Assembly (NCBI RefSeq): GCF_055900595.2
Contig: NZ_CM148325.1
Strand: one strand, 5' to 3'
Length of the DNA stretch: 64,000 nt
The notes under the pieces were generated by a model. The model did not search any database. It saw nothing but the letters and a program-made list of their open reading frames with translations, and was not told the origin of the DNA. The stretch's first letter is position 1. The number at the start of each line of letters is the position of its first letter. Both the position numbers and the translations under genes were made by a program. Of the stretch, positions 3,386 through 53,539 are shown one piece after another.

Positions 3386-4714
3386 CTGAGAGATCCCCTC
3401 ATAATTTCCCCAAAACGTAACCATGTGTGAATAGATTTTGAGTAAGCAGGGTTGCAGCCACGAGTGAGTCTTCCCTTGTTATTGTGTAGCCAGAATGCCG
3501 CAAAACTTCCATGCCTAAGCGAACTGTTGAGAGTACGTTTCGATTTCTGACTGTGTTAGCCTGGAAGTGCTTGTCCCAACCTTGTTTCTGAGCATGAACG
3601 CCCGCAAGCCAACATGTTAGTTGAAGCATCAGGGCGATTAGCAGCATGATATCAAAACGCTCTGAGCTGCTCGTTCGGCTATGGCGTAGGCCTAGTCCGT
3701 AGGCAGGACTTTTCAAGTCTCGGAAGGTTTCTTCAATCTGCATTCGCTTCGAATAGATATTAACAAGTTGTTTGGGTGTTCGAATTTCAACAGGTAAGTT
3801 AGTTGCTAGAATCCATGGCTCCTTTGCCGACGCTGAGTAGATTTTAGGTGACGGGTGGTGACAATGAGTCCGTGTCGAGCGCTGATTTTTTCGGCCTTTA
3901 GAGCGAGATTTATACAATAGAATTTGGCATGAGATTGGATTGCTTTTAGTCAGCCTCTTATAGCCTAAAGTCTTTGAGTGACTAGATGACATATCATGTA
4001 AGTTGCTGATAGGTTTCCAGTTTTCCGCTCCTAGGTCTGCATATTGTACTTTTCCTCTTACTCGACTTAACCAGTACCAACCCAGCTTCTCAACGGATTT
4101 ATACCATGGCACTTTAAAGCCAGCATCACTGACAATGAGCGGTGTGGTGTTACTCGGTAGAATGCTCGCAAGGTCGGCTAGAAATTGGTCATGAGCTTTC
4201 TTTGAACATTGCTCTGAAAGCGGGAACGCTTTCTCATAAAGAGTAACAGAACGACCGTGTAGTGCGACTGAAGCTCGCAATACCATAAGCCGTTTTTGCT
4301 CACGGATATCAGACCAGTCAACAAGTACAATGGGCATCGTATTGCCCGAACAGATAAAGCTAGCATGCCAACGGTATACAGCGAGTCGCTCTTTGTGGAG
4401 GTGACGATTACCTAACAATCGGTCGATTCGTTTGATGTTATGTTTTGTTCTCGCTTTGGTTGGCAGGTTACGGCCAAGTTCGGTAAGAGTGAGAGTTTTA
4501 CAGTCAAGTAAGGCGTGGCAAGCCAACGTTAAGCTGTTGAGTCGTTTTAAGTGTAATTCGGGGCAGAATTGGTAAAGAGAGTCGTGTAAAATATCGAGTT
4601 CGCACATTTTGTTGTCTGATTATTGATTTTTGGCGAAACCATTTGATCATATGACAAGATGTGTATCCACCTTAACTTAATGATTTTTACCAAAATCATT
4701 AGGGGATTCATCAG
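3386..4714 (-). mobile_element. Insertion sequence IS10 (IS4 family), complete 1,329-bp element
   Basis: Termini CTGAGAGATCCCCTCATAATTTCCCC (3386->) and CTGATGAATCCCCTAATGATTTTGG (reverse complement at 4714<-) form the IS10 inverted repeats; internal 402-aa transposase; length 1329 bp; flanked by 9-bp direct repeats. Confidence 0.95.
3399..4607 (-). CDS. IS10 transposase
   Basis: 402-aa ORF MCELDILHDSLYQFCPELHLKRLNSLTLACHALLDCKTLTLTELGRNLPTKARTKHNIKRIDRLLGNRHLHKERLAVYRWH... matches the IS10/Tn10 transposase as I recall it. Confidence 0.95.
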   Translation of the reverse strand: MCELDILHDSLYQFCPELHLKRLNSLTLACHALLDCKTLTLTELGRNLPTKARTKHNIKRIDRLLGNRHLHKERLAVYRWHASFICSGNTMPIVLVDWSDIREQKRLMVLRASVALHGRSVTLYEKAFPLSEQCSKKAHDQFLADLASILPSNTTPLIVSDAGFKVPWYKSVEKLGWYWLSRVRGKVQYADLGAENWKPISNLHDMSSSHSKTLGYKRLTKSNPISCQILLYKSRSKGRKNQRSTRTHCHHPSPKIYSASAKEPWILATNLPVEIRTPKQLVNIYSKRMQIEETFRDLKSPAYGLGLRHSRTSSSERFDIMLLIALMLQLTCWLAGVHAQKQGWDKHFQANTVRNRNVLSTVRLGMEVLRHSGYTITREDSLVAATLLTQNLFTHGYVLGKL

Positions 4715-48932: not shown

Positions 48933-49148
48933 ATGAAATCCATGGATAAGTTAACAACGGGCATCGCCTACAGCACCTCTGCAGGCAGTGCTGGCTACTG
49001 GTTTTTACAGTTGCTCGATAAAGTCACGCCCTCACAGTGGGCGGCAATAGGTGTATTGGGTAGTCTGGTATTTGGCATGCTGACGTATCTGACAAACCTT
49101 TATTTCAAGATTAAAGAAGACAGGCGTAAGGTTGCGAGAAGAGAGTAA
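48933..49148 (+). CDS. Holin (EssD/lambda S-like class)
   Basis: 71-aa [74 protein letters not shown]; RBS GAGGTGAGG. Confidence 0.85.
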
Positions 49149-49152
49149 TCCA

Positions 49153-49704
49153 ATGACTCAAGACTATGAACTGGTTGTGAAAGGAGTTCGCAATTTTGAG
49201 AATAAAGTGGCGGTAACTGTAGCCTTACGGGACAAAAAACACTTTGACGGTGAAATTTTTGACCTGGACATCTCGCTGGACCGTGTTGAAGGTGCCGCGC
49301 TGGAGTTTTATGAGGCAGCAGCCAGAAGGAGCATCAGACAGGTCTTCCTGGATGTTGCTGCCGGGTTATGTGAAGGGGATGAGCAGTCGCCGGAAAAGCG
49401 CCCCATAATTTTAGAGGCGCAGAATGTGTGGATAACCTACAAAGGAAAGCTACCGGGAAGAATTACTGGTTCTCTGAAGACGCCACCGACGGCATTGCGG
49501 TCAGAAAAAGATGATATTGAATCGCCCATTGAAAAACTGGAGGGCAGCGTCGCTGATCTGAATAAAAAATTGTCGGTGCTGATTCCTTCTGAAGATGAAA
49601 AAAAACGCCGCGATGAGCAGTTTGCGGCGTTTTACGATTATTGCATTGAAGTTACTCGCAGGAATTTTGTGAAGATTTTTGAGGAGGGTAAATCTCTTCA
49701 GTAA
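49153..49704 (+). CDS. Hypothetical protein inserted between holin and endolysin
   Basis: 183-aa ORF MTQDYELVVKGVRNFENKVAVTVALRDKKHFDGEIFDLDISLDRVEG...; RBS GAGAG; no recognisable motif. Confidence 0.5.
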   Translation: MTQDYELVVKGVRNFENKVAVTVALRDKKHFDGEIFDLDISLDRVEGAALEFYEAAARRSIRQVFLDVAAGLCEGDEQSPEKRPIILEAQNVWITYKGKLPGRITGSLKTPPTALRSEKDDIESPIEKLEGSVADLNKKLSVLIPSEDEKKRRDEQFAAFYDYCIEVTRRNFVKIFEEGKSLQ

Positions 49705-49912
49705 GCTTATTGGCGGACGCTGCAATTAATTCAGGAAGGTCCGCAAGGTCATCTGTCAGTGGATATGATGAAAAATCGGCGGCAGTTCTGTTAAGAAGCG
49801 CTTTAACTAATTCCTTTTCCTTCTCCGGCAACAAGTTGATTAGAGCTACGACTGCTTGCCTGAGTGCGATTAAATCAGCAAAAGTTTGTTTAGGTAGATT
49901 TGTGTAATCCAT
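49652..49912 (-). CDS. Hypothetical protein, convergent and 3'-overlapping the preceding gene
   Basis: 86-aa ORF MDYTNLPKQTFADLIALRQAVVALINLLPEKEKELVKALLNRTAADFSSYPL...; RBS GAGG 7 nt upstream; 53-nt 3' overlap with the plus-strand ORF. Confidence 0.35.
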   Translation of the reverse strand: MDYTNLPKQTFADLIALRQAVVALINLLPEKEKELVKALLNRTAADFSSYPLTDDLADLPELIAASANKLTEEIYPPQKSSQNSCE

Positions 49913-50025: not shown

Positions 50026-51053
<1,028 letters not shown>

Positions 51054-51416
51054 ATTAATATTAAATCGGATTATTTTTAGCGCTGAATGTGAAATTTAAA
51101 TAAAAAGGACTCTTCCATGAGTCAAAATCCTTGAAATCTTAAGGGTAAGATAAAAGGTCATTAGACAGAATGACACGTTTTATTAATAAATAAAGCTATT
51201 GTTTCATTCGTGTGTTTTTCTTTACAAAAGTAATCCTTGCTATGGTTGGTTAATCATGCGTTAATGGTGTTCTGGTTTGTTACAAAATTATCTGAAGCAG
51301 TCATTGTTATAATTTTATTATTTGTACCTCTTGAGATTTCCTTGTTGGTTTTTCTCTCTGATATTTTTTTTCGGACCATTCTGCCCAAGGGCTAACTTCT
51401 TCAAAAGGTAATAATG

Positions 51417-51629
51417 ATGTCTAACAAAATGACTGGTTTAGTGAAATGGTTTAACCCTGAAAAAGGTTTTGGTTTCATCACGCCGAAAGATGGTAGCAAA
51501 GATGTGTTTGTCCATTTCTCAGCTATTCAGAGCAACGATTTCAAAACGTTAACTGAGAATCAGGAAGTCGAATTTGGTATTGAGAACGGACCTAAAGGCC
51601 CCGCGGCTGTTCATGTTGTGGCACTTTGA
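51417..51629 (+). CDS. cspI: Cold-shock protein (CspA family; CspI-like)
   Basis: 70-aa [73 protein letters not shown]; preceded by ~360-bp untranslated AT-rich leader. Confidence 0.85.
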
Positions 51630-51828
51630 GGTAGATAATATTACAAACCATATTCACTTTAGATGCCCGTGTTGCCATGGTTCTCAGTATAGAACATCAT
51701 CTTTTGATGTTTCTGACAGGAATCCTTTCGGGGCAAAATGTATCTTTTGTAAATCAATGATGATTACATTTGATAATATTTCACAATACTTAAATGTTAG
51801 CCGTCTATCGTTAGATTTAAGAAAGTGA
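51613..51828 (+). CDS. Candidate small zinc-ribbon-like protein (CPCC...CxxC)
   Basis: [51 protein letters not shown]...; overlaps csp 3' end; weak RBS; followed by terminator. Confidence 0.25.
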
Positions 51829-51833
51829 AAATG

Positions 51834-51858
51834 AAGGCTCCTTCGGGAGCTTTTTTTC
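51834..51858 (+). terminator. Rho-independent terminator
   Basis: GCTCC-ttcg-GGAGC stem followed by TTTTTTT. Confidence 0.65.
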
Positions 51859-51900
51859 TTAGTGTCTAGTCGATGGATACTCACATAATACGGTAACATT

Positions 51901-52131
51901 ATGAAAAAAATAATAGTTTTTTTTAACTCTGAACCAGCAATGGTAGTGCCAGTGATGACCGGAGTTAACACCATCATGCGTGAATATCCAAATGGCGAAA
52001 CAACACACCTCACTGTAATGGCTGCAGGGTTTCCATCTCTGACCGGAGATCATAAAATCATTTATGTAGCAGCGGATCGACATGTAACTTCAGAAGAAAT
52101 TCTGGAAGCAGCAATGAGACTCTTGAATTGA
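51901..52131 (+). CDS. Small prophage protein (YdfK/YnaE-like, tentative)
   Basis: 76-aa ORF MKKIIVFFNSEPAMVVPVMTGVNTIMREYPNGETTHLTVMAAGFPSLTGDHKIIYVAADRHVTSEEILEAAMRLLN; family assignment from memory. Confidence 0.45.
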   Translation: MKKIIVFFNSEPAMVVPVMTGVNTIMREYPNGETTHLTVMAAGFPSLTGDHKIIYVAADRHVTSEEILEAAMRLLN

Positions 52132-52303
52132 TTTGATTCTAATGCATTGATAATAAATGATAATCATCTTTATCTGTTTGTGTGAAATTTAGACCGTCGT
52201 ATGTTGATTATTGCGATGTTTCATCTTATCTTTTATACGTTTGCTCCATATAATTGACACTACTGTGTACCAGGAAAGTCATAACAGACTAAAAGAGGAA
52301 ATG

Positions 52304-52477
52304 ATGAACATTGAAGAGTTAAAAACAAAAACAGAAGCAGATATTTCTGAATATATAACAAAAAAAATCATTGAGCTTAAGAAAAAGACCGGGAAAGAAG
52401 TTACCAGTATCCAGTTTACTGCACGGGAAAAAATGACTGGTCTTGAAAGCTATGATATCAAGATTGATTTAATCTAG
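52304..52477 (+). CDS. gnsB: GnsA/GnsB-family protein
   Basis: 57-aa ORF MNIEELKTKTEADISEYITKKIIELKKKTGKEVTSIQFTAREKMTGLESYDIKIDLI; RBS AGAGGA. Confidence 0.8.
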   Translation: MNIEELKTKTEADISEYITKKIIELKKKTGKEVTSIQFTAREKMTGLESYDIKIDLI

Positions 52478-52770
52478 TCTGTTTAGTATTAGCATCAATT
52501 TCTCATCAGATGCTATTCAACAATACAAATTACCCATAAACCTCGTTTTTACGGGGTTTTGTTATATTTAAACATTACCGAATAGGTATAAATCTCGATT
52601 GTCGATGGTATTGGTTGTGTGACAATACCTAGTCTTTCCGGTATGCCTGATGAGAATACAAACGACAGATTATGTAAGGGAAACGCGCTGAATCTTTAAC
52701 TCTTTCATGCTGAGTGATTTGACGTTATATTTTTAGCCGTAAGTGAAGAGCAAACGCATGGAGCGACAAA

Positions 52771-52977
52771 ATGCATAAAGATCAATACACTGATGCCCCC
52801 TCCCAGGAGCAGGTTCGTGTAAAAACTATGCTTAATAGCACCATTTCGATGGGTTACCCGGATGTTGTAATTGCATGTATAGAACATCAAGTGTCTCTGG
52901 AAGCATTCAGGGCAATTGAGGCCGCGTTAGTAAAGCACGATAAGAATACGAAGGATTATTCCCTGGTGGTTGACTGA
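52771..52977 (+). CDS. Hypothetical small protein
   Basis: 68-aa [71 protein letters not shown]; no motif recognised. Confidence 0.3.
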
Positions 52978-53539
52978 TCACCATAACTGCTAACCATTCT
53001 GACCATTTCACAAGTGACAGAGTCAATATCGTATTCTGTCACTGTCAGGCTAATACAGCAATGCAATTCAACTACAGCAATGCCTCGTATTTAGGTGAAT
53101 TTACAATATCGTCCAGTTCGGATGCCGGCTGCATTTCTGAAGATAAGGCATTTCGGTTCTCGTATTTTCCCCTCATGCTCGTCAGTCCTGCGCGTAGTAA
53201 GAAACAGGACACTCACACTAATTTGTGTGGGCATGCTGTGATGTCCTTCTGAATTATCCCCATGCCATTATGTAAAGCTCTGTTACAGATGCTCGTCACG
53301 GTTGTCAGGCTGTCGGGTCCTCCCAGTGGGGGGCCCTGCCACGGGGCGGGAGCGTCGCGGAAAAAGGCTAGTTTTTGCATTTCCATGGCGGCGGCAGCAT
53401 GTTTGGTAATTTATTGATAATTAAAAGTTATTTCCCTTTTCACCTGTACAATATTTTTTTCTTCCTGTCATTAGACCAGTTTGCAATTAATTGAAATATA
53501 TAAATAAACCTGATTTTCACCTGCCAGATGGAGTTGCTT

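Follow-up and report, generated by a model that had tools for sequence, protein, structure and literature searches.

Two gene clusters of Escherichia coli K-12 provide the closest annotated counterparts of the locus described here. The first, cspI-ynfQ-ynfR-ynfN-gnsB (b1552, b4724, b4749, b1551, b1550), lies in Qin, a cryptic prophage remnant. The second, cspG-ymcF-ymcE-gnsA, is a chromosomal paralog located outside a prophage, in which an ATT-start gene of the YmcF family begins 10 nt after a csp gene and precedes a terminator-like hairpin, an ORF of 76 aa, and a gene of the Gns family. The annotated K-12 members of the YmcF family are b4724 (ynfQ) and b4723 (ymcF); the two proteins were reportedly discovered by D'Lima et al. 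in 2017, together with their cold induction and their ATT starts. The temperate phages Tritos, mEp460, 2H10, HannyBb, and PhiR63_1 carry cspI-ynfQ-ynfN-gnsB after their endolysin and Rz genes, most of the records being without an annotation of ynfQ. At the RNA level, the cspA mRNA thermosensor (RF01766) is the relevant comparison, and for the YnfQ protein, zinc-ribbon domains such as the TFIIE-alpha zinc finger (PDB entry 1vd4) are among the closest known systems.

Cold induction of the cluster is drawn from the literature on the K-12 copies. The cspI gene is cold-induced (PMC4956666), and cspI, ynfQ, and ynfN were found to be co-induced 6.5-, 5.9-, and 5.8-fold, respectively, with ynfQ described as "cold shock induced" (PMC11228462). 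The copy studied here may respond in the same way. In prophage Tritos, the morons include an expressed cspI and ynfN (PMC9928086).

Here, we establish the gene identities, operon layout, conservation, and start-codon position of the segment 51054-52477 of a 64,000-nucleotide stretch of DNA, referred to as the window. We are confident that this segment is the cold-shock accessory (moron) cluster cspI-ynfQ(-ynfR remnant), ynfN, gnsB of Qin/Tritos-type lambdoid prophages, for which we propose a cold-linked working. All of its genes have been annotated before, and the cluster is already known.

Results

Setting and distribution of the cluster

The segment is 100% identical to the DNA of many E. 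coli chromosomes, on which RefSeq labels cspI, ymcF/ynfQ, a remnant of ynfR flagged "too short", ynfN, and gnsB. Of 5426 complete E. coli genomes, 2151 (about 40%) contain a match. The preliminary description of this DNA had placed a cluster of accessory genes between the modules for lysis and packaging, which is in agreement with the neighboring genes: Rz (DUF2514, 50556-51053) on the 5' side and, on the 3' side, a DUF1441 gene and then the gene for the terminase large subunit. All features of the cluster described below are on the + strand. The GC content of the cluster is 34.5%, compared with 49-53% in the flanking phage modules. This deviant composition, a promoter, terminators, and a seat between conserved phage modules characterize the cluster as a moron, and it is missing from some phages that have the same head-tail genes as the window.

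K-12 Qin agrees with the window in the order and spacing of the genes, in the promoter, the ATT start, and the terminators, and in having rzpQ on its flank; the DNA identity lies in the 90-95% band, and YnfQ is 95% identical. Unlike the Qin remnant, the window retains terminase, portal, head, and tail genes. YmcF of the chromosomal paralog is 68% identical to the window YnfQ, and ymcE, which overlaps the genes on either side, has no relation to ynfN. The five temperate phages encode a YnfQ with 95-100% identity, and the packaging and head-tail genes of Tritos, HannyBb, and mEp460 are 95.8-99.2% identical to those of the window. Tritos differs in having one more gene 3' of gnsB, DUF1398 (YbcV-like), and in a short annotation of ynfN.

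The csp promoter, leader, and coding sequence

The Rz stop and the csp start are separated by 363 bp with 30% GC, compared with 48% GC for the whole window. The preliminary description had regarded this AT-rich gap of ~360 bp as the csp leader. Its composition is as stated, but only part of the gap appears to be leader: the 5'UTR would span about 51272-51416, roughly 145 nt, and the rest is the promoter and the DNA 5' of it. The part that runs from the Rz stop to the promoter (51054..51236, 27% GC) is to some extent common to the region 5' of K-12 cspG, as revealed by a three-way DNA alignment.

The cspA-type promoter (51237..51265) is composed of a -35 element TTGCTA at 51237-51242, a 17-nt spacer, and an extended -10 element TGcGTTAAT, the hexamer of which occupies 51260-51265. 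These blocks are conserved in alignments with the upstream regions of K-12 cspA, cspB, cspG, and cspI, and homology with these promoters suggests a transcription start near 51272. A generic sigma-70 scan did not detect the csp promoter, because position 2 of its -10 hexamer is T and not A; therefore, the promoter was placed by homology. The number of promoter-like sites returned by the scan was 7, compared with 9.0 +/- 2.8 in shuffled sequences.

The region 51259..51675 matched the whole Rfam model of the cspA thermoregulator RF01766, which comprises the 5'UTR and coding part of cold-inducible csp mRNAs (112.8 bits versus a gathering score of 78, E = 3.3e-29). The cspA thermosensor and the window cspI have the -35, extended -10, and leader blocks in common. 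However, the "cold box" of cspA, cspB, and cspG (alignment columns 108-123) is missing from the cspI-type leader, and the window cspI mRNA appears to run on into a second cistron and not to end right after csp.

The csp gene already recognized in the preliminary description is cspI (51417..51629). It encodes a 70-aa cold shock protein (PF00313, E = 1.7e-31), is annotated as "cold shock protein CspI" in RefSeq, and aligns with K-12 cspI; the top NCBIfam matches of the protein are CspG and CspA. A cold-shock domain of ~70 aa together with a cspA-type long structured 5'UTR places it in the CspA/B/G/I family.

YnfQ is a conserved four-cysteine protein

The gene directly 3' of cspI is ynfQ (51640..51828), a member of the YmcF family that encodes a 62-aa small protein of the type CxxC...CxxC from an ATT start. 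This assignment is based on Pfam, the RefSeq CDS, homologs, substitution rates, and an AlphaFold model. The protein matches PF23641 over profile positions 1-61 of 62 (112.6 bits, cut-off 27; E = 9.8e-33), and RefSeq lists an identical protein under the name "cold shock small protein YmcF". A match to the NCBIfam CxxC model ECs_2282 was weak (17 bits versus a cut-off of 37).

We found 132 homologs of YnfQ across the Enterobacterales. Conservation of the cysteine frame, which had been suggested as a check, was clearly observed: in 42 enterobacterial homologs from about 20 genera, C9, C12, and C37 never vary, and conservation of C11 and C34 is at least 90%. The alignment contains 18 invariant columns, the Cys pairs among them, and H13 is nearly invariant. 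The dN/dS ratio in the ynfQ frame was about 0.07-0.11, with pN of 0.07-0.15 versus pS of 0.46-1.0 and synonymous sites being saturated, whereas the ratios in the two other frames over ynfQ exceeded 1 in nearly every comparison. These data indicate that ynfQ is under strong purifying selection.

In the AlphaFold model, residues 11-40 have pLDDT values >90, and this core looks like a zinc ribbon. Structure comparison and a profile search of PDB sequences returned no significant structural homologs. We conclude that YnfQ is a four-cysteine protein with a putative zinc ribbon, and that it may bind metal. The suggestion that the CPCC...CIFC frame may be a real zinc-ribbon mini-protein therefore stands in that the protein is real and conserved (PF23641, dN/dS about 0.1) and probably has a zinc-ribbon fold, but the protein is not new, as it is YnfQ/YmcF. 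Qin encodes one other small putative zinc-binding protein, YnfU; kinship with it was also considered and rejected, because the two proteins have no similarity.

The identity of the metal leaves room for a second reading, in which YnfQ binds iron in a rubredoxin-like or Rieske-like manner, with no structural zinc, and has a role in redox chemistry or sensing. The sequence CPCCHGSQY is like Rieske box II (CPCHGSxY), the profile search gave weak matches to b6f Rieske proteins exactly over this stretch (E 0.03-0.9), and the nearly invariant H13 falls in line with this resemblance. A 2026 paper also modelled YnfQ with a rubredoxin topology and a metal site holding Fe2+ (PMC13348028). However, the Rieske matches are not significant and span 13-15 residues, Rieske box I (CxHxGC) is missing, and the four-Cys CxxC...CxxC geometry is equally compatible with zinc ribbons. 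Based on these observations, we consider iron binding unlikely. As a Rieske [2Fe-2S] protein in the strict sense, YnfQ was rejected, as it has the box II-like CPCCHGSQY alone and no box I.

Terminators, the ynfR remnant, ynfN, and gnsB

A good terminator had been noted after the cysteine frame, and our terminator scan recovered it as a hairpin and T run at 51833-51854. This intrinsic terminator of the cspI-ynfQ unit (51833..51861) has the structure GAAGGCTCC-TTCG-GGAGCTTTT, followed by the T run, and is kept in K-12 Qin; its conservation after ymcF is looser. Overall, the scan revealed 5 hairpin and T-run sites in 2.7 kb, compared with 1.7 +/- 1.3 in shuffled sequences. One of these terminator-like sites lies 3' of gnsB (52538..52567), where it closes the cluster, and is likewise kept in K-12 Qin. 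An Rfam match to Atu_C8 at 51756-51868 (22 bits versus a gathering score of 50) was discarded, as it merely reflects the terminator hairpin.

Starting 2 nt past the ynfQ stop and crossing this hairpin is a truncated ynfR (51831..51869), flagged "too short" by RefSeq. It has 12 codons instead of the 21 in K-12 Qin, and the alignment shows that a K-12 TAT is TAG in the window. The gene truncated in the window cluster is cold-induced in K-12, where the tagged form of the 21-aa YnfR rises strongly after cold shock (PMC6001520).

The 76-aa ORF that follows (51901..52131) had been described as YdfK/YnaE-like. This was rejected on the basis of BLASTP against K-12 YdfK (E = 6.4, 4/11 identities); the ORF is ynfN, annotated as "protein YnfN" in RefSeq and matched by phrog_3425 (E = 2e-55), with no match in Pfam or NCBIfam. 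The window contains the full 76 aa, whereas K-12 Qin has lost 1 nt from a T run and has an annotated product of 51 aa. Homology to YmcE, whose gene holds the corresponding place in the chromosomal paralog, was rejected for lack of similarity. The last gene, expected from the preliminary description to encode a GnsB-like protein, is indeed gnsB (52304..52477), annotated as such in RefSeq, and its 57-aa product of the GnsA/GnsB family matches PF08178 over its full length (E = 2.1e-33, 114.5 bits versus a cut-off of 27).

The name given to this family in Pfam and RefSeq, "GnsA/GnsB family addiction module toxin", raises the question of whether ynfN and gnsB form a toxin-antitoxin (addiction) pair that stabilizes the prophage and has no function in cold adaptation. 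The chromosomal paralog, in which ymcE lies directly 5' of gnsA and overlaps it, would fit such an arrangement. In the window, however, YnfN has no similarity to YmcE, and ynfN and gnsB are separated by 172 bp with no overlap. Moreover, the effects reported for overexpression of gnsA or gnsB are an increase in unsaturated fatty acids and a rescue of low-temperature growth, and not cell death (bioRxiv 10.1101/2024.03.27.586906). An addiction pair thus seems quite improbable to us.

ynfQ starts at ATT 51640

Sequence comparison assigns the ynfQ start to the ATT at 51640, 10 nt 3' of the cspI stop, which gives a product of 62 aa. This is the RefSeq start, and the same ATT is annotated for both K-12 paralogs, ynfQ and ymcF. 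A Shine-Dalgarno sequence GAGGT (51628..51632), read from the sequence, overlaps the TGA stop of cspI and lies 7 nt 5' of the ATT. In the 33 csp-coupled loci of other species, the stop is inside the Shine-Dalgarno sequence (TAAGG/TGAGG) without exception. The geometry of the YmcF family, about 62 aa with a non-AUG start directly 3' of a cspG/cspI-type gene, is therefore found here as it is in K-12 ynfQ and ymcF and in these 33 loci.

The preliminary description had instead reported a 71-codon cysteine frame overlapping the csp 3' end. The open frame 51613-51828 does have 71 codons and includes CPCC...CIFC, but the conserved and annotated start is the ATT. The additional nine N-terminal codons from ATG 51613 (51613..51639) lie within the cspI 3' end and probably do not contribute to the YnfQ product. 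Synthesis of a 71-aa protein from this ATG, which would use the final 17 nt of cspI in a different frame, is very unlikely. The frame is open in the window, lengths of 70-71 aa occur among database entries from Citrobacter, Salmonella, and a phage MAG, and one Citrobacter locus likewise has an ATG at -27. On the other hand, the equivalent ATG in the 95% identical K-12 ynfQ is directly followed by TAG, K-12 ymcF has ACG at the same place, Kosakonia has no in-frame upstream start, and Salmonella has only TTG. The Pfam model covers residues 10-70 only of the 71-aa version, RefSeq annotates the ATT, and no Shine-Dalgarno sequence is found at a usable distance from the ATG, in contrast to the GAGGT before the ATT. 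ATG 51613 was rejected as the ynfQ start on the comparative grounds provided by K-12, Kosakonia, and Salmonella.

Reading ORFs with ATG, GTG, and TTG only thus mis-assigns ynfQ. The mechanical ORF list and the preliminary description both ran the gene on into cspI, and it is missing from the annotation of 6 of 9 phage GenBank records. These missing annotations, the short and AT-rich frame (33% GC), and the lack of a canonical start codon could suggest an ORF that arose by chance in the 3' region of cspI and the terminator, a reading with virtually no likelihood that the conservation data already refute through the Enterobacterales homologs with their invariant columns and Cys pairs and the purifying selection specific to this frame, besides the match to a curated Pfam family and the annotation of the gene in K-12.

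The start codon and the csp neighbor

We surveyed the start codon in 82 usable loci, 33 of them csp-coupled and 49 without an adjacent csp. Where a csp gene is directly 5', the start was non-ATG in 33 of 33 species loci (ATT or ATC; three of them without ATG are probably ATT). Without an adjacent csp, 43 of 49 loci have an ATG start; in the remaining six, the start position is occupied by ATT or ATC, so that start codon and context are strongly but not absolutely linked. Folding of four orthologous junctions revealed no shared RNA structure hiding the ynfQ start (z +0.2 to -1.5). Therefore, independent initiation at the AUU is possible as well.

Discussion

For the purpose of a genome scan, the matter is closed: the "possible mini-protein" belongs to a named, curated family, the K-12 copies of which are annotated and reported to be cold-induced.

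We propose the following cold-linked working for the cluster. The cspA-type promoter and the thermosensing 5'UTR of ~145 nt would yield a cspI mRNA that is stable and translatable at low temperature. ynfQ would be co-transcribed with cspI, because it has no promoter of its own and no terminator upstream; the first terminator is 3' of ynfQ. The 10-nt gap between the genes suggests translational coupling, in which YnfQ would be made from the AUU past the cspI stop. Because the ynfQ Shine-Dalgarno sequence overlaps that stop, ribosomes ending on the heavily translated cspI could feed the weak AUU, leading to a small, cold-linked output of YnfQ. The strong terminator would then close the unit, with ynfN and gnsB coming next. 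The cluster may also benefit the host in the cold.

Somewhat speculatively, the weak AUU/AUC start of ymcF-family genes may itself be a selected part of a translational-coupling device, kept only 9-15 nt behind an intact, massively translated csp with its stop inside the Shine-Dalgarno sequence and repeatedly replaced by AUG where csp was lost or decayed. Provided that this pattern arose by selection and is more than a legacy of common descent, YmcF would be held at a constant, low ratio to Csp by the csp-ymcF junction. The output of YmcF could then also be sensitive to IF3, because IF3 discriminates against AUU and its level rises in the cold.

The cold-shock cluster and its neighborhood

We read the region 50400-53200 and listed its ORFs; the genes and hairpins that follow lie in this order on the plus strand. 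A phage lysozyme gene (50026-50559; Pfam Phage_lysozyme) and an Rz-type DUF2514 gene with an embedded Rz1-like frame (50556-51053) precede a 363-bp gap (51054-51416), the 70-aa cold-shock-domain gene cspI (51417-51629; Pfam CSD, RefSeq), the CPCC...CIFC frame ynfQ/ymcF (up to 51828; Pfam YmcF-like), a GC-rich hairpin with a T run (51833-51854), the 76-aa ORF ynfN (51901-52131; RefSeq), and the 57-aa ORF gnsB (52304-52477; Pfam GnsAB_toxin). Sequence reading placed a second hairpin with a T-rich tail at 52538-52559; a 68-aa ORF (52771-52977) and, from 53528, a DUF1441 gene (Pfam) come next, adjoined by the terminase large subunit. The csp, GnsB-like, and cysteine-frame objects described in the preliminary description between Rz and the terminase are thus present, and the terminator proposed after the cysteine frame is real by the criteria of the terminator scan. 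The interval 51054-52477 has a GC content of 34.5%, compared with 49-53% in the neighboring lysis and packaging genes and 48% in the whole window.

Between holin and endolysin (49132-49912), a YdfR/DUF1327 frame is lengthened to 190 aa, which RefSeq treats as an incomplete pseudogene, and a minus-strand 86-aa ORF (49652-49912) has no family match. In the K-12 cryptic prophage Qin and in phage Tritos, by contrast, ydfR abuts the endolysin gene without this insert.

Of 5426 complete E. coli genomes, 2151 contain a match to the 1424-base interval, in many cases at 100% identity; the RefSeq names are cspI, ymcF/ynfQ ("cold shock small protein YmcF"), ynfN, and gnsB, with a hypothetical marked "too short" after ymcF/ynfQ. 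The same order (rzpQ, cspI, ynfQ, ynfR, ynfN, gnsB) is found in Qin, and K-12 carries a chromosomal paralog cluster (cspG, ymcF, ymcE, gnsA). Temperate phages Tritos, mEp460, 2H10, HannyBb, and PhiR63_1 also carry the cluster, and in its packaging and head-tail genes the window shares 99% identity with Tritos and the cdtI phage. Prophage Tritos morons include cspI and ynfN (PMC9928086). All genes of the interval are therefore already annotated and the cluster is already known. The preliminary description, right in spirit since this is a cold-shock moron cluster and the cysteine mini-protein is real, is partly confirmed overall; it erred in a start codon, a gene name, and a leader length. The YnfQ-family gene is unannotated in six of the nine GenBank records of phages that encode it, including mEp460, 2H10, and PhiR63_1, presumably because of its ATT start.

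ynfR, ynfN, and gnsB

The 76-aa ORF at 51901-52131, labeled YdfK/YnaE-like on first reading, is YnfN (RefSeq; phrog_3425); comparison showed it to be unrelated to YdfK or YmcE. It is full-length here, whereas the K-12 annotation (3955-4110 of the Qin ynfN locus, L002) is N-terminally truncated to 51 aa because a run of T near the 5' end has lost 1 nt. Only 12 codons of ynfR remain (51831-51869), because a TAG stands where K-12 has TAT. This ORF begins 2 nt past the ynfQ stop and spans the hairpin of the terminator, which must be read through for full-length YnfR to be made. K-12 YnfR has 21 aa, and its tagged form increased strongly after cold shock (PMC6001520). The GnsB-like protein proved to be GnsB by its Pfam match; overexpressed gnsA or gnsB raises unsaturated fatty acids and rescues low-temperature growth (bioRxiv 10.1101/2024.03.27.586906).

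The cspI promoter and leader

The Rfam cspA thermoregulator matched 51259-51675 with 112.8 bits (gathering score 78). Alignment with the upstream regions of K-12 cspA, cspB, cspG, and cspI revealed a common -35 (TTGCTA), a TGn-extended -10 (GTTAAT), and common leader blocks. The cspA homology would place the transcription start near 51272 and make the leader ~145 nt long; the 1999 work of Wang et al. is reportedly in agreement. The AT-rich leader of ~360 bp first proposed therefore holds for the AT-rich 363-bp gap and for the cspA-type character of the leader but not for its length. The rest of the gap, ~180 bp upstream of the promoter region, has 27% GC. This AT-rich DNA contains, on the minus strand at 51108-51123, a terminator-like hairpin (GACTCATGGAAGAGTC) with a T run behind it; as the minus strand has no gene upstream, it may be due to chance. 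The cspI-type leader (51280-51300; alignment A3 columns 108-123) lacks the "cold box" stretch GACGTACAGAC that is present in the K-12 cspA, cspB, and cspG leaders.

ynfQ is a conserved gene with an ATT start

The match to Pfam PF23641 (YmcF-like) had E = 9.8e-33 and was limited to residues 10-70 of the 71-aa version originally proposed. A database search returned 132 homologs within Enterobacterales, mostly of 62 aa. Among 42 aligned homologs, F7, C9, P10, C12, G14, Q16, R18, S20, D23, P29, G31, A32, K33, I35, F36, C37, K38, and M41 are invariant, and C11, H13, and C34 are ≥90% conserved. Pairwise codon analysis gave pN of 0.07-0.15 against pS of 0.46-1.0, with dN/dS of 0.07-0.11 where synonymous sites were unsaturated, whereas the other two frames had ratios >1 in nearly all comparisons. 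The cysteine frame is thus clearly conserved, which rules out the lack of conservation that would have spoken against it, and it is a real gene.

AlphaFold2 predicts short strands in YnfQ and, less confidently, a helix at the C terminus; the core (residues 11-40) is confident, with pLDDT >90. CPCCHGSQY (residues 9-17; 51664-51690) is similar to CPCHGSxY, the box II of Rieske proteins. When PDB sequences were searched with a profile, no hit passed the threshold; those below it were cytochrome b6f Rieske proteins, matched at the box II loop (E 0.03-0.9), and a UvrA zinc module. In Shimwellia blattae (711-1698 of locus L014), a CSD gene, a ynfU-like gene for a putative zinc-binding small protein, and a ymcF-like gene lie side by side; in Qin, ynfU adjoins cspB. 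YnfU and YnfQ have no sequence similarity.

RefSeq starts ynfQ at an ATT (51640), 10 nt past the cspI TGA; the annotations of both K-12 genes, ynfQ and ymcF, use the same ATT. GAGGT lies 7 nt ahead of it, overlapping the cspI stop; GAGGT and the ATT fall within 51628-51642. The preliminary description had chosen an in-frame ATG at 51613, 27 nt upstream and within cspI. The 71-codon frame is indeed open and carries the cysteine pairs, but this ATG cannot be the family start, because it directly precedes a TAG in K-12 ynfQ, is ACG in K-12 ymcF, has no upstream in-frame equivalent in Kosakonia, and has only a TTG in Salmonella. Sequence reading before 51613 found no Shine-Dalgarno comparable with GAGGT. 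Initiation at ATT and cold induction are said to have been confirmed experimentally by D'Lima et al. (2017, J Proteome Res 16:3722).

Start codon and csp adjacency

Scanning species-representative genomes with a DNA pattern for the CPCCHGSQY(R/K) core yielded 97 loci, one of them (Tateyamaria) a chance match; 82 family loci with enough flank were analyzed. Where a csp ORF ends 9-15 nt upstream (n = 33), 27 loci have ATT at the start position, 3 have ATC, and the remaining three (Serratia/Symbiopectobacterium) have GTT then ATT, so that no ATG occurs; the csp stop lies within a TAAGG or TGAGG (Shine-Dalgarno) in all 33. Without an intact adjacent csp, 43 of 49 loci have an ATG. These 49 fall into 14 upstream-sequence classes (nine ATG-only, one mixed, and four non-ATG singletons), so that ATG starts without csp occur in at least nine distinct upstream contexts. 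ATT or ATC is retained in six exceptions that lack a csp gene, most of which belong to a Kluyvera-type clade. A naive Fisher test (p = 4e-17) overstates the evidence, because phylogenetically related loci are counted as independent.

Among the ATG loci are lineages in which remnants of a decayed csp are still visible (Klebsiella/Raoultella type), and one Citrobacter sedlakii locus where csp carries a frameshift and the ATG occupies the same position. In loci of Klebsiella, Raoultella, and Citrobacter braakii (L009, L035, L040, L064, and related ones), the sequence right before the ATG still resembles a csp 3' end (e.g. ...cctgcggtagtgaatgttgtagcaaa...). This suggests that the csp partner decayed in situ after the start became ATG, or that the order was the reverse.

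The terminator scan placed the first terminator after ynfQ, and neither promoter nor terminator separates cspI from ynfQ, so the two make up a bicistronic unit. When four orthologous junctions were folded, no conserved RNA structure emerged that would enforce their coupling. cspI, ynfQ, and ynfN respond in concert (6.5-, 5.9-, and 5.8-fold) with a common SspA dependence (PMC11228462), and cspI is reported to be cold-induced (PMC4956666). The start codon of ymcF-family genes tracks csp context, a modest and possibly new observation on a known family. Ribosomes ending on cspI may feed the weak AUU start of ynfQ, and a small amount of YnfQ would then accompany the burst of CspI that cold induces.
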